This document shows, in pieces, positions 17,137 to 64,000 of a stretch of DNA of 64,000 nt. The notes beneath the pieces are model-generated. The model made no database searches. It saw only the letters and a program-made list of their open reading frames with translations, and was not told where the DNA came from. The DNA is from Myxococcota bacterium (GTDB lineage Bacteria > Myxococcota_A > UBA9160 > UBA4427). The stretch is from assembly GCA_965250285.1 (NCBI GenBank), contig OZ252299.1, positions 5,440,001-5,504,000 of the forward strand. The letters are read 5' to 3'. The position numbers and the translations under genes are program-made. Numbering within the stretch: position 1 is the first letter of the stretch; each line of letters opens with the position of its first letter.

Positions 17137-17328
17137 GGCCCGCCGCGCGCGGATCGACCCGCCGGCCGCCCGCTAGCTTGCCCACATGAATCTGGACATG
17201 CGGGTCGTGGGCACCCGGGCGGGGCCGCCTCGATCGCCCCGTGTGCCGGCCGCGTCTTCTCTCTACACTGCCCCCTCCGCCGGTGCGCGCCCGCAGGTGT
17301 GCCCCACTCGAGGAGCCCCGACCCCCCG

Positions 17329-18885: not shown

Positions 18886-18891
18886 CCGGGC

Positions 18892-22776: not shown

Positions 22777-23781
22777 GTGGCTGACCCCGAAGAGGGCCGC
22801 CGAACCCCCCGCGCCGCCCCGCCCGGCGCCCGCCTGCTCGATCGCCTGCGCGCTGCCTGTCGGCTTCGACACATGAGCCTGCGCACCGAGCAGGCGTACG
22901 TCGGCTGGGTGAAGCGCTATCTGCACTTTCACGATCTGACGCACCCCGACGAGATGGGTGCGGCCGAGGTCGTCGCTTTTCTGAGCGACCTGGCCGTGCG
23001 CCGCGAGGTCGCCGCCTCGACTCAGAACCAGGCCCGCGCCGCGCTCGTGTTTCTGTATGAGGAGGTGCTGGGCCGCGACCTCGAAGGCCTCGACGCCGCC
23101 GTGCGCGCTCGCACTCCCGTGCGCCTGCCCGTGGTGCTCGACCGCGACGAAGTGCGCGCCCTGCTCGCCGCCCTCGAAGGCGAGCACGCGCTCATCGCCC
23201 GGCTCTTGTATGGGTCGGGCCTGCGCATCTTCGAGTGCCTGCGCCTGCGCGTGAAGGACATCGACGCCGCCCGAAGGCAGATCGTCGTGCGCTCAGGCAA
23301 GGGCGACCGCGATCGCGCGACGCTCTTCGCCCGCTCGCTCGAAGAGCCCATCGCCGCCCAGCTCGTACAAGCCCGCGCCCTCTACGAGGACGACCGAAGA
23401 CGCGGCCTCCCCGGCGTCTCACTGCCCACGGCCCTCGCCCGCAAGTACCCGAACGAGAACCTCTCGTGGGGCTGGCAATGGCTCTTCCCCTCCCGCCGCG
23501 TCTCGACCGACCCCCGCACCCGCCGCCCCCACCGTCACCACCGCCACGTGAGCGGCCCCCAACGCGCCATCCGCCTCGCCGCCCGCAAAGCCGGCATCGA
23601 GAAACGCGTCACCGCCCACACCCTGCGCCACTCGTTCGCCACCCACCTGCTCGAATCAGGCTCGGACATCCGCACTGTGCAGGCCCTGCTCGGCCACCGC
23701 GACCTCAAGACCACGATGATCTACACCCACGTCCTCGACCGAGGCCCGATGGGCGTCCGCAGCCCCGCCGACGACCTGTGA
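22777..23781 (+). CDS. intI: integron integrase
   Basis: [30 protein letters not shown], IntI-specific insert [44 protein letters not shown]. Confidence 0.97.
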
Positions 23782-23954
23782 CCCACCCCCAGCGATCGCC
23801 CCGCCACCTACTCGCAGCCCCCCAGCCACATCATTCCCTTACGCAGCACCATGCGTCGTTTACGACCTATCGCGACATCGGCGCAATGAAGCCAAGTCGG
23901 CGGATTCGTGGGGGATTGAGCGAGGAGCCCCGCTCAGTCGCTAGATTATGAAGC

Positions 23955-23996
23955 GAAGCCCAGCGGCGGGCGCTGGGTGGTCAATATTAGTTAGGC
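23955..23996 (+). other. attI site (crossover G/TTAGGC at 23990)
   Basis: GTTAGGCCGCGTA (23990-24002) is the exact reverse complement of the first cassette's end (24418-24430); no attC upstream; AT-rich tcaatatta and a cccagcg/cgctggg hairpin precede it. Confidence 0.75.
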
Positions 23997-24484: not shown

Positions 24485-24602
24485 GTCGGCTACCCGAGGC
24501 GTTCAGCCGCTGCGAGCAAGGTCGCCGCAAGCCGCTGAACGCCGACCGTTAGGCAGCGTTCCAGTCAGAGTCATGGTCTTCGGTGCAGCCTGAGATGACG
24601 CA

Positions 24603-25459: not shown

Positions 25460-26077
25460 GTGGCAAAGCTCAAGGACAAGGTGCTTGAGATCGCCGGAAT
25501 TGCGAAAGAGTGCCCGGAGAATCTCCAGGCGATTTGCTTCGAGTTGCTGCTTCGGCACCACCTCGACTCGCTCGCGCCGCGATCGCCGAAGCCAACGCCA
25601 CAGGCGACACCTGAGCCCGAGACTCCTAAGGAAGAGAAGAAGCAGACGGTCGAAGAGGCGGCTTCTTCTCAAGACGATCTCTCGGAGACAGATCTCCACG
25701 TCAAGGTCCGTCGGTTCATGGAGAAGTACGCACTATCGATAGAAGACTTGAGCAACCTCTTCTACAAGGAAGATGGAGAAGTGCTCCCGTTGTACGAGGA
25801 TTTGAAGACAACGAGGCTCGCTGAGGGGCAGGTTCGAATCGCACTTCTGCAGGCGCTGCATTCGGCGATCTCGCACGGCGAATTCTCTTGCCAGGTCGAA
25901 GCTGTCCGAGCGGAGTGCAAAGACCGAAAGTGCTACGACCAGAACAACTTCGGCAGCAACTTCACCAAGAACGCAGTTCTTTTCGACTTCGACAAGTACG
26001 GCAAGTCGGTGAAGACGATCAAGCTGTCTGAGGATGGTCGAAAAGAACTTGCGGCAGTCGCCAAAGAGCTTCAGTGA
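25460..26077 (+). CDS. cassette 4 gene A: hypothetical, possible C-terminal winged helix
   Basis: AGGAGG SD; lower GC; ends KTIKLSEDGRKEL. Confidence 0.8.
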   Translation: MAKLKDKVLEIAGIAKECPENLQAICFELLLRHHLDSLAPRSPKPTPQATPEPETPKEEKKQTVEEAASSQDDLSETDLHVKVRRFMEKYALSIEDLSNLFYKEDGEVLPLYEDLKTTRLAEGQVRIALLQALHSAISHGEFSCQVEAVRAECKDRKCYDQNNFGSNFTKNAVLFDFDKYGKSVKTIKLSEDGRKELAAVAKELQ

Positions 26078-26083
26078 GCACGC

Positions 26084-26905
26084 GTGGACGCGACTCTCAA
26101 GACATTCCACGATGATCTGAAGGCGCTCAAGCGGGATCTCAAAGCTGAAGAGAATCCACGGGTTGCCAAGAAGGGCCTACGCGAACGCGCTGAGGAACTC
26201 GGGTCACGGTGGTTCAGCGAGCTGGCGCCTGGCCTTTCAAAACTGGGGTTCTCGGCTGAACTCGTCGAGAAGTACTCCGCTGCCTGCGCGCGACTAATCA
26301 AACTCAGCGCCCCAAACAACCTGAAGAAGAGCTACCTCGAGTCCATCGATGTACTCGTCAAGCCTATGCGCGACGAGCTGATTCTTCCGATCAAGTCCGG
26401 CGTCGTATCCAGCCAAGCGGTCTCTCCCTTCAATGAGTTCGTCGCCAACCTTGAAGCCGCTGAAGAGAGCGCCTATTTCCAAGAGTCGATCGATTGTGCC
26501 AAGAGCGGCTACCTACGCGCGGCGGCAGTCCTAGGCTGGTGCGCTGCGGTCGATCGAATTCATCGCAAGATTGAGGCAGATGGGTTCTCAGTCTTCAATG
26601 TGGCATCTGCCCAAATGGCAAGTCAAAAGAAGGGCCGCTACAAGCGATTCAACCAGACGCAGAACGTCACCTCAATCAGCGAGCTCCGTGAGGTCTTCGA
26701 TACCACGATCCTTTGGGTCATCGAAGGCATGGGGTTGATTGATTCGAACCAGCACACTCGACTCCGAAGCTGCTTCGAGATGCGCTGCCACTCTGCCCAC
26801 CCAGGCGACGCGCCGATCACTGAGTACAACCTGCTCTCGTTCTTCTCCGATCTGCAACAGATCGTCCTAGAGAATCCGTCCTTCGAAATCCCGACCGATA
26901 GCTAG
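26084..26905 (+). CDS. cassette 4 gene B: HEPN-like protein
   Basis: YFQESIDC..GYLRAAAVLGW helix and R-x4-H motif RCHSAH. Confidence 0.7.
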   Translation: MDATLKTFHDDLKALKRDLKAEENPRVAKKGLRERAEELGSRWFSELAPGLSKLGFSAELVEKYSAACARLIKLSAPNNLKKSYLESIDVLVKPMRDELILPIKSGVVSSQAVSPFNEFVANLEAAEESAYFQESIDCAKSGYLRAAAVLGWCAAVDRIHRKIEADGFSVFNVASAQMASQKKGRYKRFNQTQNVTSISELREVFDTTILWVIEGMGLIDSNQHTRLRSCFEMRCHSAHPGDAPITEYNLLSFFSDLQQIVLENPSFEIPTDS

Positions 26906-49948: not shown

Positions 49949-50090
49949 CAAGCCGTTGCAGCGGACGTGGCAACGCTGTGCCGATATCGACCGTGGTAGA
50001 CTGGCGGAGTCCCAGGCGTTCTGAGCCGCGGTGCAAGGTCGTGCCACGCCGCTGAACGCCGAACCGTTGGACGTCGTGAAGAGGAGCTCC

Positions 50091-50636
50091 GTGACGATCT
50101 CAGAGTTGGGCGCACTTGGGGAGTTCCTCGGCTCCATCCTCACGCTTGCAACCCTTGCGTATCTGGCGATTCAGATCCGGCAGAATACCGCTCAGCAGAA
50201 GCGCGAAGTGCTTATCTCGATCCAGCACGGCCAGAACGCCGTTGTCGCTCAGCTGCTGGATCCGAGCGTCATGGGCGCGTTCGTGCGCGGAGCTGCTGGC
50301 AAAGATCCATCGATCGAAGACCGTGCAACAGCGCAGAACTGGGTGCTTCAGTACCTGAATCACTTCCAGATCATCCACGATCTCCATCGGAACCGAGCGC
50401 TGGACGAAGAGCAGTACCAGCTGTGGGCTGGCTTCGCGGTAGCCATGATCGCGCCTGCCCGTGTTCGCAAGTGGTGGGAAGAGGAAGACGGTCGGTTTGC
50501 GTTCCATTCTGAGGTCCGCGAGATGATCGACGAGCGACTCCGCGATATCGAGAACCCGCCTCGCCCGATCACGGAGATGTGGAGCACGTTCGATCCCAAT
50601 CCGTGGGAGGCAGACTCGGGCGTGCGCGGCGCGTGA
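50091..50636 (+). CDS. single-TM protein, YLAxQIRQ family (DUF6082-like)
   Basis: GAGGAG SD; MTISELGALGEFLG...YLAIQIRQNT. Confidence 0.8.
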   Translation: MTISELGALGEFLGSILTLATLAYLAIQIRQNTAQQKREVLISIQHGQNAVVAQLLDPSVMGAFVRGAAGKDPSIEDRATAQNWVLQYLNHFQIIHDLHRNRALDEEQYQLWAGFAVAMIAPARVRKWWEEEDGRFAFHSEVREMIDERLRDIENPPRPITEMWSTFDPNPWEADSGVRGA

Positions 50637-50818
50637 TCTATCGACTCGGCGCCACACCGCCCAACAAGGCGTAGCAGCCGACCGTCGACGGCCTGGTTCG
50701 ATTGATCTTCTTTGCCATCTGGCGGCATACTTGTGTGGCCGGATCGGATCCGGTCAGCGCTGTCGCTGGCCGCTGAACGCCAACCACTGCGCAGCGCGAA
50801 TAGGGCATTCGGTCGAAC

Positions 50819-51343
50819 GTGACGTTGTCAGACCTAGCAGCGATCGGCGAGGCCGTCGGCGGGGCGGCGGTCCTCATCACGCTTGGCTACCTCGCGTATC
50901 AGTTTCGGCAGACGGCCGCGATCGAGCGAACGGCCGGCCAGAGAGACCTTCTCAGTCGATGCAGATCGTGGGTTGAGCTTACGATCACCCACGACGGGCT
51001 CTTCGAGACGCTCTGCAAGGTCCTCGCTGACTGGGAATCGGCCACCCCGGCAGAGAGAGAACGCGTCAATGCGTGGGCGCTATCCGCCGCGCTGCAAGCC
51101 GAGCAGGCGCTCTACATGCGAAGGGAAGGTCTCATCAACGAGGCCTCCTATCGCGGCTTCGTCAACGTCGCGGTTTCCATCGCTGCGACTCCGGGCGGGC
51201 GGCACTGGTGGAAGAACGCACGAATCGCGCTGGGCGACGATATCTCTGACTTGATCGACCTCGAGCTCGAATCGCGGCCGACGGATGCGCTCGACTGGAC
51301 GCAGATCTTCTCTCATTGGTCCGAGGAGTCGTCTTTCTCGTGA
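50819..51343 (+). CDS. single-TM protein, YLAxQIRQ family
   Basis: MTLSDLAAIGEAVGG...YLAYQFRQ...PGGRHWW. Confidence 0.8.
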   Translation: MTLSDLAAIGEAVGGAAVLITLGYLAYQFRQTAAIERTAGQRDLLSRCRSWVELTITHDGLFETLCKVLADWESATPAERERVNAWALSAALQAEQALYMRREGLINEASYRGFVNVAVSIAATPGGRHWWKNARIALGDDISDLIDLELESRPTDALDWTQIFSHWSEESSFS

Positions 51344-51501
51344 GCCACCCCATTACCATGCACCGCATGCCGCGCGGTCGGAGCAGATGTGGCAACGCCT
51401 GTGGCCTTCGGCTGGTGGTACACTTTCTGAGTCCAAGGCTTTGGCCGTCGTCGTGCAAGGTCGCGCCACGCCGCTGAACGCCGATTCGTCAGGCCGCGCG
51501 A

Positions 51502-52296
51502 ATGGCTGCCCGATCGATCCCAGCCGAGCGACGATTCACCTTCGACGAGATCCCTGATCTGTACGATCGGGTTCGGCCCGGCTATCCCGAATCACTCTGC
51601 GACGATCTCGTCGCGATCTCCGGGCTTCCAGCCGGCGGTCGAGTTCTCGAGATCGGCTGTGGGACCGGTCAGTTGACGGTTCCCCTCGCCGAGCGGGGCT
51701 ACTCGATCCTGTGTCTCGAACCCGGTCCTGCGATCGCTGCGTTCGCACGGCAGAAGCTCGAAGCCTTCCCGCGTGTCGAAGTCGTCGAGTCGACGTTCGA
51801 GGCGTGGCCCAGCGAACCCGGCGCCTTCGACCTGGTGGTGTCCGCTCAGGCGTTCCACTGGGTCGAGCCAGAGGTGGGCTTTGCCAAGGCCGCCGAGGCC
51901 CTGACCCGCTCGGGCGTGCTCGCGGTCGTCGGCAATGCACATGGCTCGGAGCGATCGTCGATCGATGATGCCGTCGATGCAGTCTACGCGCGACATGCGC
52001 CGACTCTGTCTGGCCCGCCGGTGACACGCTGGTACGCAGAGGGGGGGCCGGTGGCCGAGCTCTTCTCGTCTTCGGGCCACTTCCAGCCGGTCGAACGTCG
52101 TCACTATCCGTGGTCGGAATCGTACTCGGCCGACGACTACTGCGATCTTCTGCGGACACACTCCGATCATCGGCTTCTCCCTCGAGATCAGCGAGAATCC
52201 TTGCTGCGCGCCCTCTCCGAGGTGATCTCGAGTCACGGAGGCACGATCGACGTCGAGTACACCGCGAATCTCTACGCAGCGGCGCGCGCGGCCTGA
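51502..52296 (+). CDS. class I SAM-dependent methyltransferase
   Basis: YDRVRPGYP, VLEIGCGTGQ, AQAFHWV. Confidence 0.9.
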   Translation: MAARSIPAERRFTFDEIPDLYDRVRPGYPESLCDDLVAISGLPAGGRVLEIGCGTGQLTVPLAERGYSILCLEPGPAIAAFARQKLEAFPRVEVVESTFEAWPSEPGAFDLVVSAQAFHWVEPEVGFAKAAEALTRSGVLAVVGNAHGSERSSIDDAVDAVYARHAPTLSGPPVTRWYAEGGPVAELFSSSGHFQPVERRHYPWSESYSADDYCDLLRTHSDHRLLPRDQRESLLRALSEVISSHGGTIDVEYTANLYAAARAA

Positions 52297-52431
52297 CCAG
52301 CGGTGGCCGCGGGTGTGGCTCCGGGGCTGCGATCACGCGCGTGGTAGAGTCTCGAATTCTCGGGTGTCAGCAGCCCCGGTGCCCGGTGGCGCCACGCCGC
52401 TGAACGCCGACCGTCAGGCAGAAGCTCAAAG

Positions 52432-52896
52432 ATGAACTGGGATGCAGTCGGCGCAATCGCAGAGCTCGCAGGGGCCATCGCGGTCTTCGCCTCGTTGGCC
52501 TACCTCGCCGTCCAGATTCGCCAGAACACGAAGTCCTCGCGCGAAGCGACGTATCAGGCGATCGTCGGCGATCTCCAGCAGTTTCGGTTGGCGATTGCGC
52601 AGGATCCCGACATATCGCGCCTCTACCGACAGGGTCTGAAGGATCTGGATGCGCTCTCAGAGGAAGACCAATGGCGTTTCGGCGCGTTGATGCAGACGCT
52701 CTACTCGGTCTTCGAGTCGCAGTATCGCGCTCGCAACCACGAGATCTTCAGTCAGGTGCTCGCCGACATGGCGTGGATCGCCGGCCGGCCCGGCGCGCGG
52801 CAGTGGTGGGGGAAGGCGAAGCGAGTGTTCGACCCCGAGTTCGTTCGCTTCGTCGATGCATCGATTGATGATGCACCGCAGCCAGACTCTGCTTGA
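52432..52896 (+). CDS. single-TM protein, YLAxQIRQ family
   Basis: MNWDAVGAIAELAG...YLAVQIRQNT...PGARQWW. Confidence 0.8.
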   Translation: MNWDAVGAIAELAGAIAVFASLAYLAVQIRQNTKSSREATYQAIVGDLQQFRLAIAQDPDISRLYRQGLKDLDALSEEDQWRFGALMQTLYSVFESQYRARNHEIFSQVLADMAWIAGRPGARQWWGKAKRVFDPEFVRFVDASIDDAPQPDSA

Positions 52897-53131
52897 TCTG
52901 CGCTGTCGTCGGAGCGCGCGTGGTAGAATCACGGCTTCGAAGGCGTGAGCACGCATTGCGGCGAGCCGCCGCAAGCCGCCGAGCGCCCACCGCTCGAAGG
53001 CGACAGCGGAGGTCGAGACGATCGTCGACTATCCCTACCGATTTCGCTTCAGATGGGCTCGTGGCCCGGGGTCGACCGGTCCAGTCGAGCTCGGCGACCT
53101 GAGAGGCCTGATCGTCAGTGCGGGCATCGCC

Positions 53132-53455
53132 TTGGTGCTCGCTCTCATGGTGCTCACAGAGAGCAAGTTCAAGGGTGCGTTCTCGTACTGGGTCGTTTCG
53201 AGCATCGCTCTCGTCGCGCTCCTCGCGTTCTCGACGGTTGCCTTTGAGTACGTCCCCCGCACTTCCCTGGCGCTGGTGGTGCTTCTCTCGCTTGCGACTT
53301 CGCTCGTTGGGCTCGCTTACGCCTTCTCGATGTTCGGGCTTCGAGGGGCTGAGCCTCGATCGGTACCGATTCTCATCTCGATCTACGGTCTTATCGTGTG
53401 TGCATGTGGCCTACGGGTGGTTCGAGCGTGTACGCGCCTCGAGTCTCGCAATTGA
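53132..53455 (+). CDS. membrane protein
   Basis: Hydrophobic ORF; start uncertain. Confidence 0.45.
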   Translation: MVLALMVLTESKFKGAFSYWVVSSIALVALLAFSTVAFEYVPRTSLALVVLLSLATSLVGLAYAFSMFGLRGAEPRSVPILISIYGLIVCACGLRVVRACTRLESRN

Positions 53456-53654
53456 GACGAGTCGACGTGTGCCCTCGCGAAGGCCATGGCAGTGAGCTTG
53501 CACCTGCGAAGGGGGGCCGGATCATTGAAGCTTGGCCGGCGTTCATGCCATTCGGTCGCCGCGCGCTGACCTGTTGCGCAGCAGCGAGACCCGAAGCCCT
53601 GAGCGTCGAAAACCGCTGCACGCGCAGCGCAGCCACAGGGAGAGGTCGCAGGTT

Positions 53655-54005
53655 GTGGACGATTCACTGACCGATGCGCTCGATGGCACCCGCATGGTGT
53701 ACACCTACCCCGAGATGGGCACTGTTCGCGTCGCCTTCGCGGGCGGACGCGTGAGCTTCGAGTGGCTCGCGGGTCCGCTCGAGGGAGAATCGGGTCGTGA
53801 CTTTGCCTACCGTGCACGCAAGGTCGGCGACGATCAGTTCTTCGTGAACTGGCACGAACCCGATGCGCGCGGGTTCGTGACTCTGCACATCGACTTCGAG
53901 ACCGAGCGCGTTCGGAGCTCGGTGCTGGCGGCCTATGCAACCGACGATGAACAGGTCTTCTTTCATGGGGCGGCCATCGACCGCGTGGAGTCTTCTAGCC
54001 GTTAA
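53655..54005 (+). CDS. MoaF/phenolic-acid-decarboxylase-like beta-barrel protein
   Basis: YTY...FEWLAGP...KVGDDQFFVNWHE...VTLHIDF. Confidence 0.7.
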   Translation: MDDSLTDALDGTRMVYTYPEMGTVRVAFAGGRVSFEWLAGPLEGESGRDFAYRARKVGDDQFFVNWHEPDARGFVTLHIDFETERVRSSVLAAYATDDEQVFFHGAAIDRVESSSR

Positions 54006-54164
54006 CGAGCCGCCCATGAAGCCGCCGCAGCAGAGTCGCAACCGCTGAGGCGAGGCCAGGCCGTGGTAGCATGCCTGTTTTCCAAGGCGCTCAGCCGCTG
54101 CGAGCCAGTCTGCCGCACGATGCTGAGCGCCGACTGCTAGGCAGCAGCCGCGGAGTCTCAACGG

Positions 54165-54557
54165 GTGAAGACGGTTGCCCGATTCAGAGATCCGTGGGAG
54201 GCGCACCTTGCGCGAGGCCTGCTAGAAGCCGAGTCAATCGAGGCATTCGTCTTCGATGAGACTGTGATCGGCATCGACTGGCGGTACTCGAACGCGCTCG
54301 GCGGTGCTCGAGTCGCGGTTGCTCGAGCCGATGAAGAGGCTGCTCTCGAGCTGCTTCGGGCCCCGCTCGCAGCGCCAGCCGAGCAAGAGCCGTGTCCAGC
54401 GTGCTCTTCTCTCGACGTGACGCTCAGCCGATACTCCCTCTGGTCGCTGGTGCCCTCTCTCTTGTTCGGCGTGCCGTTCTTCTTTCCGCGCAAGCACTGG
54501 CAGTGCGCCAGCTGTGGGCACAGGTGGGGTCGAGGCCACAAGCAAGTCGACGCCTGA
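54165..54557 (+). CDS. DUF2007-domain protein with Zn-ribbon
   Basis: MKTVARF..PWEAHLARGLLEAESI...SNALGG; CPAC and CASC. Confidence 0.8.
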   Translation: MKTVARFRDPWEAHLARGLLEAESIEAFVFDETVIGIDWRYSNALGGARVAVARADEEAALELLRAPLAAPAEQEPCPACSSLDVTLSRYSLWSLVPSLLFGVPFFFPRKHWQCASCGHRWGRGHKQVDA

Positions 54558-54709
54558 CCGGCTCTCGCAGCGAACGTGACACCGCTTCTGTCGGATCGGT
54601 CGTGGTAGGCTGGCTGTTGTCAGGGTGTCGAGGGTGTTCGGGGTGTTCAGCACCGCGGTGCGAGGTCGCGCCACGCTGCTGAAGGCCGAGCGCGAAGGGG
54701 CGGGCGGCA

Positions 54710-55159
54710 TTGCAGTTCACATCCCCGAAACGTCGCCAGCTGCTCAAGCGTGCCGTGACGACCGTCGACGGCCTTCTTGGTCTCGCCGTGGGGGTGCTGC
54801 TCGTCTACTCACTCAGTGAATGGGCGCCAAACTCGGGTGTCATTGTCTCGAGCTTGGCCATGGCCGTTCTCATCCCGGTCGTCACGACCGTCTGGCTTGC
54901 TGCCTTTAGCCCTCACTCGACTGAAAGGATCGAGGTCGGTGAGCATGCGATCAGCTTCAACTCGTACGGTGACGTGATCAGTATCCCGTGGTCTGCTCTC
55001 TCATCGGTGGGCTCGTCGAAGGGTCTCTCTCGGAGCGTGAAGTTCAGCTCGCTCGAGACGTCAGGCTTCTCGGTTTCACAGTGGTCGTTCTCTTCAGAAA
55101 TCTGGGCCGCATTGCTTCGCGAGATCTCTCTGCGAGCCCCGCACGTCACGGCCACCTGA
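54710..55159 (+). CDS. 2-TM protein with PH-like domain
   Basis: ISIPWSALSSV. Confidence 0.65.
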   Translation: MQFTSPKRRQLLKRAVTTVDGLLGLAVGVLLVYSLSEWAPNSGVIVSSLAMAVLIPVVTTVWLAAFSPHSTERIEVGEHAISFNSYGDVISIPWSALSSVGSSKGLSRSVKFSSLETSGFSVSQWSFSSEIWAALLREISLRAPHVTAT

Positions 55160-55286
55160 CGAACCATCGCAGCAGATGCGTTGTCGATCTGGGTGAGTCG
55201 GGTCATGGTCAAGCTGAGAAGTCAGAGGCGTTGTCAGTGGCTGTGCCAGGTCGGCGCAAGCCACTGAACGCCGACCGCTGGGTGGC

Positions 55287-55784
55287 GTGATGGGCGCTCG
55301 AATCGCTCGCGTACTTGCTTGGGTCATAGTCTCAGCTCTCGCACTGCTCACGAGTTGTGCTCTTGTCCCCGTCGCGCTCTTCTCGATCTTCGGTCAGTCC
55401 GAAGTCGTCAGAGTCCCCTCGCCCAATGGTCGCGTCGACGCGGTTCTCGTCGAAACCAACGGCGGTGCGACCACCTCGTTCGGATATCGAGTGATCCTGA
55501 CACGTCACGATTGGCATTGGCGCACGGGGCGCGAGACCGCGAGCTTGTACGGAGCGGTCCGCTCTGAGAACGCATATGGGGCCAATCTCGAATGGCAAGA
55601 CGAGAATTCCCTGTCGGTGCTCTACCTGAGGGCACGGCGGGCGACTGAGCGGGAGCACCCGACGACCATTGCAGGACGAACCGTCACGACGACGCTCCGT
55701 GCAGGTGTCTCGGACCCGACGGCTCCCTCGGGTGGCATGCTCTACAACCTCGAGGGGCGTCCGCATGACGAGCGGAGCGAATGA
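55287..55784 (+). CDS. membrane-anchored hypothetical protein
   Basis: SPNGRVDAVLVETNGGATTSF. Confidence 0.75.
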   Translation: MMGARIARVLAWVIVSALALLTSCALVPVALFSIFGQSEVVRVPSPNGRVDAVLVETNGGATTSFGYRVILTRHDWHWRTGRETASLYGAVRSENAYGANLEWQDENSLSVLYLRARRATEREHPTTIAGRTVTTTLRAGVSDPTAPSGGMLYNLEGRPHDERSE

Positions 55785-55910
55785 GGGCAGCCGCCTTGCT
55801 TCCGCCGAGGCGATGTCGGCTCGTGTTAGTCTCCCGAGTGTTCGAGGCGTAGGGCCGCCGTGGGCGAGGGCGCCGCGAGTGGGTGATCGCCCACCGCCAG
55901 GTCGCCAGAG

Positions 55911-56333
55911 TTGAACTGGGACCAGATCGAAGCGATTCGAAGGTACGCCGAGAACGCGACGCCTGAAGAGCGGCGCGAGCTCGCCGCTGCGCTGCTCGAA
56001 ATCGACGACGGCGGAAAGCGGGTTGGCTACACCCCGCTATCGCCCGGCACGGTTTGGCTGAGCCGCGCCGCGAGCGTTCCGGCTCTCGCCGCGAATGCGT
56101 ACCTGCTCTCCGGCGTCGCAGTGCATCCACTTCGGATCATCGTGGCCCACGCGTTGCCGCTCTTGTTGGTCTGGTATCCGAACCAGTTCTCGAGCGCCGT
56201 CGGGCACCTCACTCTCTCGAGCTACATCGACCGACCCTCGTCGCCCCGCATCGTGCTGGGCTTGTCGTGGGTCTGGCTGTGTTGGCCCCTGTTGATGTTC
56301 CTCGCACGACTCGTTCGCACCTTCTCGACTTGA
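55911..56333 (+). CDS. membrane protein
   Basis: Fills the interval between decayed attC sites. Confidence 0.6.
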   Translation: MNWDQIEAIRRYAENATPEERRELAAALLEIDDGGKRVGYTPLSPGTVWLSRAASVPALAANAYLLSGVAVHPLRIIVAHALPLLLVWYPNQFSSAVGHLTLSSYIDRPSSPRIVLGLSWVWLCWPLLMFLARLVRTFST

Positions 56334-56490
56334 TGCGCCGTTGCAGCCGAGTTGCGCTCGCTGAGGCGAGATCGCGTCGTGGTAGACTGCCGCCTTCTCG
56401 ATGCGCTCAGACGCTGCGAACCAGGTCGCTTCACGCCGCCGAGCGCCAACCGCTCAACGGGCAGTGGCTTCGAGAACCGCTATGAGAGGC

Positions 56491-57159
56491 ATGATGGATC
56501 CGACACCCACGAGACACGCGCCGAGCCTCATTCTGTGGGGCGGCATCGGCTGGATCGTCTTCTACGTCGCAAGCTTCGCCGCGCTGGGGCAGGATCCTCC
56601 GACGGTGGAATCGACCGGTGCCGAGATCGTCGCCTGGTTCACCAACAACGGAACGGCCGCTCAGATCTACGCATGGACGGCTGCGTTCGCGGCCCTCGGG
56701 CTGACCGTGTTCGGCGCCATGCTGACGGGGCTGCTTCCCAGCCCGCACCGCTACATCCTGTTCGGCGGCGTGCTCATGTGGGTCGTCACGGGGATGGTGC
56801 AGGCTTGGTTCTGGGCCGGGTTGGCATTTCGTCCGGAGAATCTCGATCCGGCCGTGGCTGAGCTTCTGTTCGTCATTCCGCAGTACTGGGGGCCCGTGAT
56901 CAACGGCTCGACCATGACGATGGCGTTGCCCTTCATCCTGCTCGGGTTCGGGGCGAATGCGACGATTCCTCGCTGGTTCGCCTGGCTCAGCGTCGCACTC
57001 TTCGTCGAGCAGGCGATCGAGACGATCACTGTGTTCGGGCGAAGCGGCTTTCTGGCACCGGGGGGTGCGATGAACCTCTATCTGGGCGGCTCGATCGGAC
57101 TGGCCTGGGTCGTTGGAGCCCTGGTTTGGGGCCATCGAGCGTGGCAGGCGCGAAGCTGA
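56491..57159 (+). CDS. multi-TM membrane protein
   Basis: About 6 TM segments. Confidence 0.75.
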   Translation: MMDPTPTRHAPSLILWGGIGWIVFYVASFAALGQDPPTVESTGAEIVAWFTNNGTAAQIYAWTAAFAALGLTVFGAMLTGLLPSPHRYILFGGVLMWVVTGMVQAWFWAGLAFRPENLDPAVAELLFVIPQYWGPVINGSTMTMALPFILLGFGANATIPRWFAWLSVALFVEQAIETITVFGRSGFLAPGGAMNLYLGGSIGLAWVVGALVWGHRAWQARS

Positions 57160-57673
57160 GCTCGGTTTCGCATGTGACTCGATCGCGTGCTGAAGCAGAG
57201 TGACCCGCCCGAGCAGCCGTCTCATCGAATCAGCGATCGGTCGTTTCGATTCGATCTGGCTGCGAGTGGCCCCAGACTCTCTCGGGCTGGGGCAGGACAG
57301 GTCGTCGCGTTTTGCTTCGCCCTGACCGCCGGTCGTTGAGCGGTATGGACGAAGCCGAGACAGAAAGAGTCGAGGGAAACCCGTGGGCGTGGCTCGGTGC
57401 CGGGGCCTTCGCGCGTGGATCGGGCCTCTTCTGTCTCTACGTCGAATCAGTCGCCGAGATCATCTCCGCACAGCCGCTGACGTAGCCGTGACGAGCCACT
57501 CGACGACATGCGGAAGCGGGCGAGCACACCACGGCTTCGATTGACCTCGGGTGCCGACTGGGGCGATACTTGATTTTCAGGATCGGGGCCGGTCAGCGCT
57601 GTGGCGGGCCGCCGAACGCCGATTCGTCGAGCCCCGCCCGTCTTCGCGGGCAGTGGATGAAGAAGTCGAGACC

Positions 57674-58099
57674 GTGCAGTTCGATTCACTCGTCTACCCC
57701 ATGTTCGCCATGGTCATCCTCACGGCCCTGACCCTCTTTCGCCTCTTCGCGGGGCGCATGTCGGCCGTTCGTTCAGGGGCAGCCGACGCCCGGTACTTCA
57801 AGACGTATCAGGAGGGCGGCGAGCCTGTTGCGACGGCCCAGCTCTCTCGAAACTTTTCGAACCTCTTCGAGGCGCCGACGCTCTTCTACGTCGCCTGCCT
57901 GGCCGCCATGATTGCGGCGCCGTCTTCGACCGCAGTACTGGTGCTCGCATGGCTCTACGTCGTGTCGCGGGTGGCCCACACCTGGGTCCACACGACGAGC
58001 AACACGCTCAATCACCGGATCGCCGCATACTTCGCGAGCTGGGCGGTGCTCTTGGCGCTCTGGCTGGCGGTCGTGTGGGCGGTCGCAAGTCAACCCTAG
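57674..58099 (+). CDS. MAPEG family protein
   Basis: RNFSNLFEAPTLFY...LAWLYVVSRVAH. Confidence 0.85.
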   Translation: MQFDSLVYPMFAMVILTALTLFRLFAGRMSAVRSGAADARYFKTYQEGGEPVATAQLSRNFSNLFEAPTLFYVACLAAMIAAPSSTAVLVLAWLYVVSRVAHTWVHTTSNTLNHRIAAYFASWAVLLALWLAVVWAVASQP

Positions 58100-58271
58100 T
58101 CGGGTACGGCCCTCTTGGCGGCGGGGAACCCGGCCGGTGGGCTCGCCGATTGCGCTTCGACATCGAGCGCATCGGTCGGGGGTCGGGTTTCGAGAACCGA
58201 GGCGTCGCCGGCTGCCGTGCCACGTCGGCTCGAGCCGCTGGGCGCCGGTGCATCATGCGGCAGGGCCCTCC

Positions 58272-58751
58272 ATGAACTGGGAAGCTGTGGGTGCGATCGC
58301 CGAGCTGCTCGGCGCGCTCGGTGTCATCGCGACACTCGTCTATCTCGCGCGACAGATCAGCGTGAACACGTCCACGGTGCGTGCGTCGGCCGCAGCGTCT
58401 CTGTCCGAAGCGAACACGGGCCTGTCGGCGCTGTTGGCTCAAGATGCCGAAGTCAACCGCCTCTTCTGGAGCTGTCTCACGGATCGAGACAGCCTCTCGG
58501 AACCAGAGAAGCTTCGATCGGATGCCATCATCGCGACCTTCCTCGGCGTGATCGAGCAGTCTCACGACTTCTACGCCGAAGGCGCGATCACGGACGAGAA
58601 GCGCGAAGCGCGCGAGCTGCAGCTCGCCTGGCTGGTGACGCAGCCCGGGTTCTCGGCCTTCTGGGACGCGTACGGTCCGACGTACGCTCGGTCGTTTGCA
58701 GCGCTCGTCGAGCGAGCGCAACAGAGCGGGCCACGGGCGTCCGCCTCGTGA
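58272..58751 (+). CDS. single-TM protein, YLAxQIRQ family
   Basis: MNWEAVGAIAELLG...YLARQI...PGFSAFW. Confidence 0.8.
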   Translation: MNWEAVGAIAELLGALGVIATLVYLARQISVNTSTVRASAAASLSEANTGLSALLAQDAEVNRLFWSCLTDRDSLSEPEKLRSDAIIATFLGVIEQSHDFYAEGAITDEKREARELQLAWLVTQPGFSAFWDAYGPTYARSFAALVERAQQSGPRASAS

Positions 58752-58881
58752 GACCGGCCGCAGCGTCGATGGCCGCCCCGGCGACGGGTCGATGGTGGTA
58801 CGCTCGCCGACCGAGCGGCTTCGGCCGTCGTGGTGCAAAGTTGTGCCCCGACGCCGAGCGCTGATCTGCGAGGGAGCGAGC

Positions 58882-59376
58882 GTGCACCCCGGCGATGTTC
58901 TCTCTCTGACGATCGAAGTCAGCATCGCCATCGCCGGGTTCTCGGGCATCGTCGTCGTGCTCGGGCGAAGGCAGGCCGGCGAGTGGACATCCGTCGACCG
59001 GCTGCGACTGAGGGGGCTGCTCAACGCGAGCTTTGCGCCGATCGGAATCTCGGGCTTCGCGCTCGTGCTTCTCGCGTCTGATCTGCCGGCGGAGACCGTC
59101 TGGAGAGTCGCGAGCGCGCTCTACGCAGCGCTCTTCGTTCTGTTCTTCTCTCACGGCATGCGGCAGGCATCCAATCTTCCACAGGGCGAGGTCAATCGGT
59201 TGCATCTGGTCGTCGTCGGTTGCTCGGGTGTGGCCGTCAGCCTGCTGCTCGTCGTCAACGCGGTCTCGCTCGCCGTGTTCTGGCCCATGGCGGTCGCCCT
59301 GGGGTTTCAGCTCGTGCTGGCGCTGGTCAACTTCGTCGGTCTGCTGAACCGGGCCGTCTCTGCGAACCCCGACTGA
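58882..59376 (+). CDS. membrane protein, AGFSG family
   Basis: EVSIAIAGFSGIVVVLGRR. Confidence 0.75.
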   Translation: MHPGDVLSLTIEVSIAIAGFSGIVVVLGRRQAGEWTSVDRLRLRGLLNASFAPIGISGFALVLLASDLPAETVWRVASALYAALFVLFFSHGMRQASNLPQGEVNRLHLVVVGCSGVAVSLLLVVNAVSLAVFWPMAVALGFQLVLALVNFVGLLNRAVSANPD

Positions 59377-59681
59377 CGCGCCGATGCGGCGGGCGTCGCA
59401 TCGCTCTTCGGGCGGTTGGGGGGGCAAGTCGCGGCTCTCGAGGCTTCGTTCGACGCGGTGCAGGGCCGTGCCCCACCACCGTTCTCGCCCATCGACTCGA
59501 GCGCGGCGAGCTCGATCCTTGGCTCGATCTCGTGCCTGCGTGTCGAGCCTCTGCACTGCTGGTGCTTCTGACTGCGTCCGATCACGTCGTGGTAGCGTCT
59601 CGACTCTCGAGGCGTCGACCGTCGCTGCGCCAGGTGAGCGAGCGACGCGGTCGCCGACCGTCAGACGGTGCGATTCGGCCC

Positions 59682-60107
59682 ATGCGAACGGAGCTGACCG
59701 CTCGACCGAGCACGGTGTGGGTGTACTCGGCGATGTGCCTCACGGTTGCCGTCGTGATGCCCATCATCGATCCGTTTCTTCTGCTCGCGACCGTGGTCTT
59801 CGTGCCGCTGGGTCTCTCGGGTCTTCTCTTCTGGCGAGTCTCGATGGATGAGTCGGGCTTCACGGCCGAACGCCGCGGCCGCGTGATCTCGTTCCCGTTC
59901 GAGAAAGTCGCGTACGTATCCGAAGGGGCCATTGGTCTGCCCCACCTCGTGCTCGTTCTGGAGCTGGGCGTAGGCGTCGATCAGATCCGATTTCTGCCCG
60001 AACCGAGCCATGGCCGAATCTGGTGGGGCCACCATCGTCTGCAACAGCAGCTGAGTGACATCATCGAAGCGAGTCGGGATCGGGCTGAGGGTTCGGCCGA
60101 CGCCTAG
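59682..60107 (+). CDS. 2-TM protein with PH-like domain
   Basis: ISFPFEKV. Confidence 0.6.
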   Translation: MRTELTARPSTVWVYSAMCLTVAVVMPIIDPFLLLATVVFVPLGLSGLLFWRVSMDESGFTAERRGRVISFPFEKVAYVSEGAIGLPHLVLVLELGVGVDQIRFLPEPSHGRIWWGHHRLQQQLSDIIEASRDRAEGSADA

Positions 60108-60240
60108 CGGGTGTTTGCACTGGGCTCGCCAGCGCTCAAACGACATGGGTCGTGGTAGACTTTTCCGCGTCCAAGGCGTGCACGGTCGCTGTGCCAGACG
60201 GGCGCGAGCTGCTGAACGCCGACTCGCCAGGCAGCCGAAC

Positions 60241-60741
60241 GTGACGATTCAAGATCTCGGGAGCATCGGCGAGTTCGTGGCGGCGATCGCCACCCTCGTG
60301 ACGCTCGGCTACCTCGCGATTCAGATTCGTCAGCTCTCGAAGGCGACCCGGGCCGAAGCGGCGCGCGGGACCCGGGACAATGACCCGGTTGTTCTCGCGC
60401 TTGCGCAGGACCCGGCTCTCAACGAACTCTTCGTCACGGGGTTGAGCCGTCATGAAGACCTGACGCCCCTCGATCAGGCGAGATTCGCATGGGTTCTGGG
60501 TTTGATCGTCGGCGCGGCGTCGCGCAACTATCACGATGTGACGCTCGGGATCCTCGACGAACGCCACTTCATGGAGAACGCGCGCGGTCAGCTGATGTTC
60601 CTCGAAACCAGCGGGGGCGCCGAGTTCTGGCGCCGGTTCTCACACACGCTTCCGCCGGCGTTTCGTGCCTTCGTCGAACGCGAGCTCGATATCAAGAGGA
60701 CGGCACCAGGCCCAGGCGCCGAGCTCGAGTCGACCGCCTAG
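60241..60741 (+). CDS. single-TM protein, YLAxQIRQ family
   Basis: MTIQDLGSIGEFVAA...YLAIQIRQ...GGAEFW. Confidence 0.8.
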   Translation: MTIQDLGSIGEFVAAIATLVTLGYLAIQIRQLSKATRAEAARGTRDNDPVVLALAQDPALNELFVTGLSRHEDLTPLDQARFAWVLGLIVGAASRNYHDVTLGILDERHFMENARGQLMFLETSGGAEFWRRFSHTLPPAFRAFVERELDIKRTAPGPGAELESTA

Positions 60742-60868
60742 CGAAGGGTTGCCGCGGGTCGGGTCACGCGATGGCGGCTGCTCTCGGTAGAATGTCGGTG
60801 TTCCAATCTTCGACGGTCCGGCGCAGGACCTTGTGCTGCCGCCGAACGCCGACTGCGAGGCACCATCC

Positions 60869-61351
60869 GTGACGGCAGAGACGTTTCTCTCGTCTGCGAC
60901 CGAGGTCGCCATCGGCATCGCCGGGTTCGCCGGCATCATTGCGGCGATTCGCCATCGCGACCTGAGCGCGTGGGCGGCCGAGGATCGACTGCTCCTGCGG
61001 ATGCTGCTGGTCGCATCCGGTGTGTCGGTCCTCTTCTCATGGCTGCCCATCATCCTGTTCGAGGCCGGGGTGGGTCGAGAGATCGTCTGGCGTGGTTCGA
61101 GCCTCGTTCTCCTCGTCTGGCACACGTCGACCGTCGTCTATCGCATCCGTCAGCTCAGGCGACTCGGGCTCGGCAGGATCGCGCCCAATATCTCGGCCGT
61201 CTGGAACGCCGGCATCATCTTGTTCCAGATCGCCAATCTCTATCTGGCCGAATCGTGGCCCTACCTCCTGGGCATCGCGGGCATCTTGATCAACGCGTTC
61301 ATGTTCTTCCTGGTGCTCCTGCTCGGCCGGCCTTCGGATACGCCCGACTAA
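60869..61351 (+). CDS. membrane protein, AGFSG family
   Basis: EVAIGIAGFAGIIAA. Confidence 0.75.
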   Translation: MTAETFLSSATEVAIGIAGFAGIIAAIRHRDLSAWAAEDRLLLRMLLVASGVSVLFSWLPIILFEAGVGREIVWRGSSLVLLVWHTSTVVYRIRQLRRLGLGRIAPNISAVWNAGIILFQIANLYLAESWPYLLGIAGILINAFMFFLVLLLGRPSDTPD

Positions 61352-61445
61352 CGTCGCGCCGACGACGTTGGGCTCTCGAACATCGGGTGCCCGACTCGCA
61401 TCGAGTGCCTGGAACCCACGCGTCATACGCAGGAGCCCTGAAAGC

Positions 61446-61913
61446 ATGCGACCGGTTGGCCCGAGCGACGTCTCTGCCGTGCTTTCGGTTGCCCAGGAGA
61501 GCGGGCTGTTCGCAGCCGACGAGCTCGGCGATGTCCAAGCCATGCTCGAATCGTTTCTGGCTGGCGAATCGGGGCCTGATCACCACTGGGTCACCCACGA
61601 CGGCGATCAGGTATCGGGCGTTGCGTACTTCGCGCCCGAACCGTTCACCGAGGGCGTCTGGAATCTCTACATGCTCGCGGTTGCCCCTGACCATCAGGGC
61701 TCGGGCCTGGGTGCGTCGCTCGTCGAGTATGCAGAGTCGGTGGCGACCGAGTCAGGCGCTCGGCTCATGCTCATCGAGACATCGGGAACGCCGGGATTCG
61801 AACGGACGCGTGCGTTCTACGTGCGGTGTGGCTACGTACAAGAAGCCAGAATCCGCGACTACTACGGTGCCGGCGACGACAAGGTCGTCTTCTGGAAGTC
61901 GTTCGCGGGTTGA
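61446..61913 (+). CDS. GNAT family N-acetyltransferase
   Basis: LAVAPDHQGSGLG...IETSG...RAFYVRCGY...RIRDYY. Confidence 0.9.
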   Translation: MRPVGPSDVSAVLSVAQESGLFAADELGDVQAMLESFLAGESGPDHHWVTHDGDQVSGVAYFAPEPFTEGVWNLYMLAVAPDHQGSGLGASLVEYAESVATESGARLMLIETSGTPGFERTRAFYVRCGYVQEARIRDYYGAGDDKVVFWKSFAG

Positions 61914-62086
61914 CGTGCGGTCGAGGCGCGTGGCGGATCGGTTCGGGATCGGAGCGCGAGCACCAGGGCTCGGCCTGTTCCCCTCGTGATACGATCCCGA
62001 TCGTCTTGGGCGATGCCAGCCACTGTGCCAGATCGGTGCATGGGGCTGGACGCCGCATCTGCTGAGCGGCCGAGCGCACATGAGTC

Positions 62087-62449
62087 ATGGCTGATCTATT
62101 CCTAGACCTCTTCCAGAACAGAGCGATTCGAAAGAACACGCTCGCGGCCGGTCGAGCAAGCCGAAAAGCAGGCGCCGCGCAGCGGAGTGTTCGCGACCTC
62201 GAGGCGGAGGTCGATCGTCTGAACCTCGTGGCCTTTGCGATGTGGGAGCTTCTGCAAGATCACACGGGCGCCACGGACGAGCAGCTGATCGAGAAGGTTC
62301 GTTCAGTCGACCTTCACGACGGTCACCGCAACAATCGAGCGAAGCCGCCCCCCATCGACTGTCCAGAATGCGGTCGAACGATCAACGCGCGACACGTCAA
62401 GTGTCTCTACTGCGACGCGGAGATCTCGACCAGCCCCTTCGGCAAGTAG
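62087..62449 (+). CDS. hypothetical protein with C-terminal Zn ribbon
   Basis: AMWELL...CPECGR...CLYC. Confidence 0.75.
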   Translation: MADLFLDLFQNRAIRKNTLAAGRASRKAGAAQRSVRDLEAEVDRLNLVAFAMWELLQDHTGATDEQLIEKVRSVDLHDGHRNNRAKPPPIDCPECGRTINARHVKCLYCDAEISTSPFGK

Positions 62450-62619
62450 GCGCGGTTGATCACTTGCTCTGACTTTTTGGCCCCGACAGGCGGCGTGGCC
62501 GCCGAGGGATTCGCGCGTTCGGCAGAGCGGCGCGTGGTAGGCTCACTTCGACCGAGGCGTACATCGCCACTGTGCCAGATCGGTGCAAGGGGCTGGACGT
62601 CGATCGTTGGGTGACGGCG

Positions 62620-63027
62620 ATGCGATCTGGATCGTGGCGCTTGGCTTGCGTGATCGTGCTTGCTCTGACCTTCGGCTCATGTCGGACGCCTTCGATGGCA
62701 ACGCCCCGAGCGTGCCCTTCGTTCTCTGAGCTGCCGCCTCAGGTCGATACGGCGTGTGCCCCCTCGGACGTCATGAGTCGATACTCGACCAAGATCTTCA
62801 AGCGCTGGATCGAGGGGCTGCATCTGGGGTCGAGGGGGCCGCTTTCGTTCCCGTGGTTGACACTCGTCTACGGTGAGGGTCCGACGGTCGAGCTCGCCTG
62901 CTACCGCCTAGTTGATGACTCGATCCCCGAGAAGAGAGTGGCTATCGCCGCGAAATCCGTCGCGCGGGTTCGGGTTCCGCGCGAGCTCGCATGCTTTGCG
63001 GGTGGGCGTCTCGACCTCGCTCAGTAA
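62620..63027 (+). CDS. putative lipoprotein
   Basis: FGSC lipobox-like. Confidence 0.5.
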   Translation: MRSGSWRLACVIVLALTFGSCRTPSMATPRACPSFSELPPQVDTACAPSDVMSRYSTKIFKRWIEGLHLGSRGPLSFPWLTLVYGEGPTVELACYRLVDDSIPEKRVAIAAKSVARVRVPRELACFAGGRLDLAQ

Positions 63028-63175
63028 TGGGACGTCCTGACGGACCGGCGCTTCATCCTGGCTCGTTCTTCGCGGTTGCGCGCGCGTGGTAGACTGCCGC
63101 CGAAGTGAGCGAGACGAGCCGCCGCGTCGGGTGTTCGCGACGCGGCTCCTGCTGAAGGCGAGGCGACGAGAGACA

Positions 63176-63661
63176 GTGCTGGAGCGAGTCGGAGAGCATT
63201 TCGATCGGGTCTTGTTCGCGCTCGACCTGCCGCGGTTCGAGCCCTGCGCAGCCACGACGCGCCTCCCTACGGATCACTTCCTCTGTCTGCTCGCCGCCGA
63301 CTTCACCTCTGCATCGGACGGTGAGATTTCGATGCTTGCGAACTCGCTCATCGAGCGCGGTGCATCGTATTTCGTGTGCTGGGGGCCGGGTTGCTCGCGT
63401 GTGCACGCTTTGATCGACGACCTGACGCTCCTTGTCGAGGCACCCACGTCGGATGGCTCCGTCATCATGACGACATCGCACGGGGGTGAGACCCTGTCGG
63501 AGGCGCTCTTCTTCTTGCTCTGCACGGCCTGGCCCGATACGGGCTACCAGGATTCGAGCGGTTGCATCGTGGCCGTCTCTGTGGGCGGTGGGTCGATTGC
63601 GGCCGAGATTCGCGAGGCCCTCGCCGAACCCGAGGCCTTCGTCGCGAAGATGTCGGCGTGA
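63176..63661 (+). CDS. hypothetical protein
   Basis: GASYFVCWGPGC..VHALID...IMTTSH..ETLSEALFF; start uncertain. Confidence 0.65.
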   Translation: MLERVGEHFDRVLFALDLPRFEPCAATTRLPTDHFLCLLAADFTSASDGEISMLANSLIERGASYFVCWGPGCSRVHALIDDLTLLVEAPTSDGSVIMTTSHGGETLSEALFFLLCTAWPDTGYQDSSGCIVAVSVGGGSIAAEIREALAEPEAFVAKMSA

Positions 63662-63728
63662 CCTTCGGTCGCCGAGCCCGTTGGCGCCTTGGCTGAAACC
63701 CACTTCTTCGAGCTTCATCCCTGAACTC

Positions 63729-64000
63729 ATGCCGTCGAACGTCAACCTGTTCTCAGCACTCGAGAGCATCACTGCCCGGCCCGAGCCCTTCGCGGTGTAC
63801 ACCGCCGCCGAGCTGTGGACGAACCCGCACACGTCGGCGCGAATGCTCGCGTTTCATCTCGACGAGAACGCCGACGTGTCGTCGCGCCGAGCCGACTTCA
63901 TCGATCGCTCGGTCGAGTGGATCAGCGACCGCTTCGAGGTCGGCCGCGGTACGAAGGTCGTCGACTTCGGCTGCGGCCCCGGGCTGTACGCCGAGCGGCT
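63729..64000 (+). CDS. class I SAM-dependent methyltransferase, 3' truncated by the window
   Basis: LWTNPHTSARMLAFHL...VVDFGCGPGLYAER. Confidence 0.85.
   Translation, partial: MPSNVNLFSALESITARPEPFAVYTAAELWTNPHTSARMLAFHLDENADVSSRRADFIDRSVEWISDRFEVGRGTKVVDFGCGPGLYAER

Follow-up and report, generated by a model that had tools for sequence, protein, structure and literature searches.

A promoter-like box in attC loops is kept by most decayed sites in the distal tail of a Myxococcota integron

The locus described here is an integron of a Myxococcota bacterium (GTDB lineage Bacteria; Myxococcota_A; UBA9160; UBA4427), in which a tail of decayed cassette recombination sites (attC) follows an array of intact ones and a promoter-like loop motif, TGnTAnnnT, is kept in most of the decayed sites. 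The window is the whole 64,000-nt stretch analysed, positions 5,440,001 to 5,504,000 of contig OZ252299.1 (NCBI GenBank assembly GCA_965250285.1), and is part of a single-contig genome of 6.25 Mb. Coordinates are those of the window unless given as genome positions. The main features, including the open reading frames (ORFs) of the tail, are as follows.

22777–23781, + strand: IntI, intact integron integrase (TIGR02249, 439 bits against a cut-off of 265, 315/315 positions, no stops; Pfam Phage_integrase and Phage_int_SAM_4)
23990–23996, + strand: likely attI core site (GTTAGGC), assigned from its position between intI and the first cassette
24423–50072, + strand: proximal array, 49 intact attC sites (~130 bp), all bearing TGnTAnnnT at alignment columns 54–62, in the apical loop
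50819–63661, + strand: 20 open co-oriented tail ORFs of 107–264 aa, one per junction (methyltransferase 51502, MoaF-like 53655, DUF2007 54165, MAPEG 57653, GNAT 61446, DUF7684 63176, the rest unnamed)

Integrase, proximal array and decayed tail

The intI gene has the orientation of the cassettes. No clear cassette promoter (Pc) was found by eye in 23780–23990. Arms are invariant across the 49 intact attC sites (RYYYAAC ... GTTRRRY), and the bottom strand folds into a hairpin (z -3.05 in one example). Judged by its IntI match and its attC array, the locus is a complete sedentary integron. Identical cassettes at several proximal positions and in a five-site cluster at genome 109–111 kb suggest recent integrase activity.

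Profile scores break sharply at the end of this array, from 70–139 bits for the 49 sites up to 50070 to 66 or less beyond. The heavy mutation of attC boxes noted from about 50.6 kb onwards was confirmed: among 18 canonical-type remnants the R'' AAC was kept in none, the R' GTT in two and both in none. These triplets are named the conserved attC core in the accessible text of PMC3607928. The end-to-end bottom-strand stem was lost in five of the seven remnants folded, those at 52290 and 60101 still pairing at their ends. On these sequence features, triplets and stem, the tail sites fail as functional attC. Decay was uneven, with 60% of the left arm and 76% of the right arm retained. Box changes were led by A>G (56) and T>C (33), and 14 indel events were counted in 11 remnants.

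A 41,895-nt contig (X1) from one of three sequencing runs of a single study, which may include the source sample, matches 49960–64000 with no difference, and pieces from the other two runs (X2, X3) agree. Nothing points to an assembly artefact as the source of the tail. Joints of the proximal array in these runs, which lie at repeats and have sides of only ~30 letters, give no proof of excision. The tail is contiguous with the IntI array and so is not a CALIN, a cluster with no integrase nearby. The remnants are listed below with z scores from the masked alignment of the next section; all lie on the + strand.

50658–50792, +: second-family attC remnant, R' broken, -35 TTGATC (50702) N18 -10 CATACT (50726); intact members in the relatives G031, G016, G020 and G022
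51364–51494, +: attC remnant, motif kept, TACACT 51419; z 22.5
52290–52419, +: attC remnant, motif kept, TAGAGT 52345; z 16.8
52857–53001, +: attC remnant, left arm partly deleted, motif kept, TAGAAT 52924, 4 nt off the blind column; z 6.7
53473–53621, +: weak attC remnant, motif lost, 3/5 key bases; z 3.9
54011–54142, +: attC remnant, motif kept, TAGCAT 54067; z 19.7
54551–54698, +: attC remnant with short internal duplication, motif kept, TAGGCT 54606, 8 nt off the blind column; z 13.8
55153–55283, +: well-preserved attC remnant, motif broken by a one-base insertion (TGGTCAAGCT at 55206), a counter-example; z 20.3
55775–55902, +: attC remnant, motif kept, TAGTCT 55827; z 16.4
56327–56458, +: attC remnant, motif kept, TAGACT 56383; z 21.0
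57206–57341, +: doubtful remnant without motif, before a 46-codon ORF; z 3.7, just over the null maximum
57509–57632, +: second-family attC remnant, -35 TTGACC (57541) N18 -10 GATACT (57565), the sole sigma-70 consensus hit in 50–64 kb; z 4.4
58119–58261, +: attC remnant, motif lost; z 5.4
58742–58874, +: attC remnant, motif kept, TACGCT 58799; z 10.5
59370–59500, +: attC remnant, motif lost, followed by a second remnant and not by a gene; z 7.0
59537–59666, +: attC remnant, motif kept, TAGCGT 59593; z 9.8
60101–60232, +: attC remnant, motif kept, TAGACT 60156; z 13.9
60735–60861, +: attC remnant, motif 4/5 (CGG-TAGAAT 60788); z 6.9
61927–62067, +: attC remnant, motif kept, TACGAT 61990, exactly in the blind column; z 4.8
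62480–62612, +: attC remnant, motif kept, TAGGCT 62538; z 11.4
63087–63165, +: motif TAGACT 63090 with partial L'-like box, putative attC origin, 86 nt before ORF 63176; z -0.2

All 13 motif-bearing hexamers that had been noted were recovered letter for letter, and the near-match at 60788 reads CGG-TAGAAT. The 13 are the only + strand matches to TGnTAnnnT in 50.6–63.2 kb, where the - strand has none. A second-order Markov model gave an expectation of 2.1 +/- 1.4 (maximum 7 in 200), and the genome rate is 0.045 per kb. The original list of remnants was real in all 13 entries and incomplete, since it held positives only and omitted five junction remnants without the motif (53528, 55209, 57265, which is doubtful, 58178 and 59424). 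One entry, 63090, stood in part: the motif is present, and attC origin depends on the motif, its spacing and the partial L' box, the masked alignment giving no signal. Past the window the tail continues to about 75 kb, with motifs from 64635 to 74751 and fading arms. Sites past 63 kb are mostly without detectable arms, and most past 64 kb do not align without the motif; two beyond the window, 67245 and 69665, still align.

Some remnants have peculiarities of their own. At 52290–52419 both R boxes are changed and yet the ends pair (TGAC, GTCA). In several remnants R'' TAA has become TGA and serves as the stop of the upstream gene. One remnant carries a short tandem duplication just after the motif (54600–54660), and in a relative (G005, L044 17654–17669) the motif itself is duplicated in one remnant.

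Retention of the loop motif in masked alignments

The nine motif columns were masked, gene-junction regions were aligned to every intact site, and 150 random segments served as the null. Twenty of 23 in-window regions exceeded the best of the 150 random segments; 63090, 61330 and 63640 did not. By this alignment, the attC origin of 20 tail regions holds without use of the motif. These 20 comprise 12 remnants with the whole motif, one with four of its five bases, five that have lost it and two of the other attC family. Among the 12, the motif lies in the exact blind column in eight, beside an adjacent gap in one, and is shifted by 1, 4 and 8 nt in three.

Whole-motif retention was compared with 47,320 base-matched sets of invariant box positions (four A/T, one G/C), which were retained whole in 0.98 remnants on average and in seven at most. 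The observed count was eight when strict and 12 with shifts. With sets of any five box positions, G/C included, 0.08% reached 12. Binomial P values were 7e-11 at the base-matched rate and 3e-4 at the rate of the best arm. Selection on the motif independent of recombination, as originally proposed, is supported by these counts: 12 of 18 remnants with dead R boxes keep 5/5 bases, against ~1 expected. A comparison of substitution rates at motif and box positions, the check proposed for this claim, gave a split result, positive for whole motifs and not significant in a pooled blind per-base test.

Since retention is all-or-none, the fair comparison is one of whole-motif counts. A per-base excess was seen in 11 strong alignments (46/55, P 0.04; A/T only, 35/44 vs 100/176, P 0.006) and when local shifts were allowed (73/90, P 0.01). 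Boxes are retained alike beside kept (0.69) and lost (0.66) motifs. They drift toward G+C, so that the A/T-rich motif is kept against the drift. Of the tandem remnants at 59370 and 59537, only the latter, which precedes a gene, keeps the motif.

These data bear on an alternative of ascertainment and neutral decay, in which the tail is a graveyard and the motif seems protected because remnants were recognised by it. The positives-only list with its five counter-examples, the pooled per-base result, and the failure of 63090 and most sites past 64 kb to align without the motif all speak for it. With the motif masked, however, it was found in the exact column in 8/18 remnants and within 8 nt in 12/18, against the control mean of 0.98 and maximum of 7. 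Only 53% of A/T box bases were retained, so a motif with four A/T positions should have vanished first, and the ORFs are open and ameliorated while the indels accumulate in the remnants. The masked test already largely refutes this alternative, which is considered very unlikely.

The motif as a likely promoter, in the host genome and in relatives

Among 52 unique intact sites, T54, G55, T57, A58 and T62 are invariant (52/52) and the three inner hexamer bases are variable. The box sits in the unpaired tip of the bottom-strand fold, facing the next cassette; at an unpaired position, pairing does not explain its invariant bases. Conserved T-12, A-11 and T-7 with variable inner bases are the pattern of a sigma-70 extended -10 element. 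Outside the arrays the genome holds 398 matches to TGnTAnnnT on both strands, of which 89% are non-coding and 74% lie 15–200 nt upstream of a same-strand gene, as placed by our own codon-based gene caller (5182 calls). For the controls TGnTAnnn[ACG] and TGnATnnnT this placement was 4% and 7%. The motif also lies upstream of 5/61 ARAGORN calls.

The box in the attC loop is likely a housekeeping extended -10 promoter for the next cassette, because the motif marks upstream regions genome-wide, its T..A...T bases are conserved, and a sister attC family carries a -35/-10 pair at the same place. On sequence grounds the promoter reading is well supported. A consensus sigma-70 scan, which requires a -35, gave one hit in 50–64 kb against 1.4 expected. 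A sigma-54 search (TGGCA-N6-TTGC) in 24.0–63.2 kb gave no strict match on either strand and seven and eight loose ones, with no strand bias, and Rfam gave no match in 23–64 kb.

A selected motif could instead be the site of a nucleoid or regulatory protein, or a feature of the single-stranded loop, and the lack of a -35 box and the fixed hairpin position fit such a role. The motif is, however, strand-specific and non-palindromic, with the conserved and variable positions of a -10 element. It stands upstream of ordinary genes and ARAGORN calls, is replaced by a -35/-10 pair in the sister family, and persists after the recombination fold is gone. A non-promoter function is decidedly unlikely.

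The right half of each intact attC (e.g. 24490–24550), which would be the 5' end of a transcript, folds into a long hairpin of its own. For intact sites its median was -28.4 kcal/mol and z -2.85 (44 sequences, one of them not attC); it is weaker in the tail (z -0.75, 14 sequences) and gone beyond it (z 0.08, 7 sequences). Since this hairpin takes up the L' box, it competes with the recombination fold. It may be a leader, an attenuator or a brake on recombination.

The attC model matched 60 of 101 genomes of the class. Forty stretches were taken and 35 were scanned with arm-only matrices; the remaining five comprised one duplicate, two short integrase contigs and two that held no array. Sites were counted at a score of at least 24, above the null maximum, and with an L' box, as a threshold of 16 admitted false sites. 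Intact sites (134 in 18 genomes) had the extended -10 in 90 cases, a -35/-10 pair in 7, TAnnnT only in 19 and none in 18. For broken-box sites (61 in 18 genomes) the corresponding counts were 37, 6, 10 and 8. The opposite strand gave 0/309, and shuffles ~9 at a looser threshold. The motif lay 51–53 nt from the site start in 84/92, though loop sequences differ widely between families.

In four relatives (G031, G005, G018, G016), whose sites were listed by motif and not blind, intact sites grade into remnants with kept motifs; G+C rises along the G031 and G005 arrays. A second attC family, found order-wide (L031, L034, L037, L045, L046, L048), has TTGAcc-N18-cATACT in the loop instead of the extended -10. 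In G020 (L038 ~11730) a chimeric attC, made of a left half from the -35/-10 family and a right half from the extended -10 family, carries both promoter-like boxes. Across the phylum, arms plus motif were found in 10/201 genomes, all of this order. Among 79 integrase loci, mostly of other phyla, a crude finder gave the motif in 0/35 attC calls at 13 strand-loci.

The diversity of attC families bears on another possibility, that the tail sites belong to divergent families, from other donors or an earlier integron, and still recombine. In its favour, many families occur in relatives' arrays, the proximal array lacks the family of two tail sites, and the boundary is abrupt. Foreign intact families in relatives nonetheless keep AAC and GTT, whereas here AAC is gone in 18/18. 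Each remnant maps to a proximal subtype, its changes are mostly A>G and T>C, and most of the folded remnants have no end-to-end stem. Continued recombination of divergent families is, on this evidence, also decidedly unlikely. An earlier integron phase may have caused the abrupt boundary and is compatible with decay of sites around persisting promoters.

Tail genes, probable cassette fixation and related systems

Besides the junctions with the 20 tail ORFs, two junction intervals were found, one with only 46 codons and one without an ORF. Neutral expectations for open frames were 4.4, 7.3 and 10.9 of 20 at the full, half and quarter box rate, before indels; the ORFs were chosen as open, but they tile the tail. 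Upstream of them are 13 full motifs, one 4/5 form and two -35/-10 forms. The start codon follows 82–104 nt after the hexamer in 12/13 cases. Median G+C at third codon positions (GC3) was 0.69 for 32 unique proximal ORFs, with no trend along the array, and 0.76 for the tail ORFs (P 6e-6; rho 0.51 along the tail). It was 0.82 for 15 ORFs beyond the window, two of which (66831, 69846) are likely wrong frames left in the medians, and 0.89 for the genome. The rise in GC3 is consistent with amelioration of the tail genes toward the host.

Open frames and amelioration support the idea that old cassettes become fixed genes, in a lineage-specific sense only. The idea that each has its own promoter was right in part, the putative promoter belonging to the attC of the upstream neighbour and not to the gene itself. 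Fixation of the tail genes is likely within the sequence record of this lineage. Synteny of the tail in related genomes had also been proposed as a check. No such synteny was found in 40 relatives; as the one from the same genus (G001) consists of 460 contigs at 83% completeness, synteny counts as 'not found' rather than 'absent'. Tail proteins had only paralogues (identity of 45% or less) in relatives' arrays, and proximal proteins had no match there. The lack of a shared tail suggests that each lineage fixes its own genes, and a reach into the core genome is not supported. Operon read-through from a few promoters, with several motifs (above all the most distal) arisen anew as host promoters, is scarcely credible: the motif is common upstream of host genes, clear terminators are missing at most junctions and sites past 63 kb mostly show no arms, but in-window motifs stand at the inherited column and start-codon distance, and 67245 and 69665 still align.

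Quite probably, then, the attC loop box is an extended -10 promoter, and the recombination boxes of the distal sites decay while most promoters and genes persist, likely still expressed and useful. RNA polymerase would start ~7 nt after the hexamer, and the right attC half would become the 5' leader of the next gene. Expression of each gene would follow the attC variant of its upstream neighbour, whatever the distance to Pc; on an excised circle, a cassette's box would point at its own gene. The tail could form by a ratchet. New cassettes would enter at attI, and those between intact sites would keep turning over. Once the last sites were broken, nothing downstream would pair for excision, and cassettes would settle at the distal end. 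Selection would keep coding sequence and promoter, boxes and stems would drift toward G+C, and gene-less cassettes would be dropped, until farther out the promoter alone remained. The sharp boundary could equally reflect a temporary halt of integrase activity.

Several observations weigh against this explanation. Five remnants lack the motif, one of them the well-preserved site at 55153, so retention is not universal, and a promoter motif is missing before 4/20 tail genes. The extended -10 boxes come without any -35 match. The strict count of eight was reached by 2.8% of sets of any five box positions, G/C included. Pooled blind per-base retention was 64/100 for the motif and 577/840 for the boxes in 20 remnants (P 0.36), and 61/90 in 18 remnants (P 1.0); both motif-lost sites and indels, which displace the masked columns, dilute this test. 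In three relatives (G020, G097, G028) broken sites are interspersed with intact ones and show no clean polarity. Relatives' regions were chosen with a model containing the motif, their broken sites are often only mildly mutated, G031 supplies 34/90 of the motif-bearing intact sites, and kin are not independent. The DNA search for the tail in relatives returned only attC-like pieces and single genes.

More tentatively, the reading may extend to the whole order, where attC would be both recombination site and promoter and arrays would be fully expressed. The integron would then act as a gene conveyor: cassettes taken up at attI would be tried out under the promoter of their neighbour, and useful ones would be written into the chromosome at the far end by the death of their boxes, as ordinary units of promoter and gene. 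Part of the host's normal genes and promoters would be attC-derived. In such an array an incoming cassette would likely be expressed at any position. In the standard model distal cassettes stay unexpressed until reshuffling brings them to Pc; every attC of this array, by contrast, resembles a promoter. As a natural experiment, the decayed tail sets the promoter role apart from recombination, and it forms a readable time series from intact site, to broken boxes with promoter, to promoter alone. It bears on the fate of old cassettes and on how acquired genes gain stable expression. Scanners for attC would end such arrays early, by ~25 kb here.

The locus resembles the superintegrons of Vibrio and the sedentary integrons with intI in cassette orientation (Cury et al., 2016, PMC4889954) in its IntI and attI-like core. 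It also shares with them near-identical attC sites (49 here) with R/L boxes, small genes in one orientation and repeated gene-less cassettes, and differs in the promoter-like box in every attC and the long tail of broken sites. Cassettes are stated to 'rarely contain promoters' and to depend on Pc (Cury et al., 2016, PMC4889954). Transcription is widespread across the DAT722 array, and there, too, a sigma-70-type promoter located at an attC drives the downstream cassette; the one promoter mapped bridges one attC and its -10 is unique in the array (Michael and Labbate, 2010, PMC2945992). As described in the accessible text, the -10 there lies in the cassette, whereas here the whole element lies in every attC loop and outlasts the site.

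Poor or missing attC is known to lock a gene in place in stabilised cassettes (veb1, fused cassettes, CALIN), as it would here. Those are single cases or involve integrase loss; here, with the integrase intact, ~20 sites in a row have decayed, and the likely promoter is part of the dead site itself. Tansirichaiya et al. reportedly described promoter-carrying gene-less cassettes in 2019. Such cassettes are also described by Blanco et al. (2024, PMC11014356), with one start mapped inside the attC of cassette F2. As far as the accessible text goes, those starts are scattered in special cassettes, in contrast to the conserved recombination-site element found here. The weak attC of veb1 stabilises its cassette (PMC3518468), and CALIN are regarded as a possible step to stabilisation (PMC4889954). 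A 2022 review (PMC8876359) lists cassette-borne promoters and fused cassettes, with none in attC loops in its accessible text. The accessible portions of PMC3607928, PMC11551772, PMC8946536 and bioRxiv 2025.06.18.660453 contain nothing on an attC-loop promoter or its survival. Full-text literature searches, with most subscription papers and supplements outside their scope, found no description of a conserved attC-loop promoter or its survival in decayed sites. Cassette promoters and stabilisation by attC loss were already known; the decayed tail as a natural experiment is what this case adds.

Among the tail genes, an unnamed protein family with an N-terminus like 'MNWDAVGAIAE' (DUF6082-like as a weak lead) takes a large share, with members at 50091, 50819, 52432, 58272 and 60241 and, beyond the window, at 64721, 65995, 70521, ~85.2 and 93.1 kb. 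None of the 49 proximal cassette ORFs belongs to it. Four further copies lie elsewhere in the genome, and relatives' arrays often contain the family. A gene-less cassette of ~274 bp occurs in nine diverging proximal copies (27039, 29354, 30771, 31722, 34009, 35738, 36136, 43827, 46230), with no recognisable copy in the tail. The 1485-bp cassette at 25460–26905 has two genes and the lowest G+C of the array. At genome 109237–114100 (C1), five intact attC sites of the same family lie without a nearby IntI match; two genes and one decayed site (113969) follow, a small version of the tail pattern. An RND efflux pair (528 and 1050 aa, judged from the look of the sequences) with a thioesterase-like ORF on the - strand sits just upstream of intI, at 17299–22044. 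Cumulative GC skew, which is weak, has its minimum near genome 4.85 Mb and would place the attC bottom strands (24000–64000) on the leading-strand template, as in sedentary integrons.

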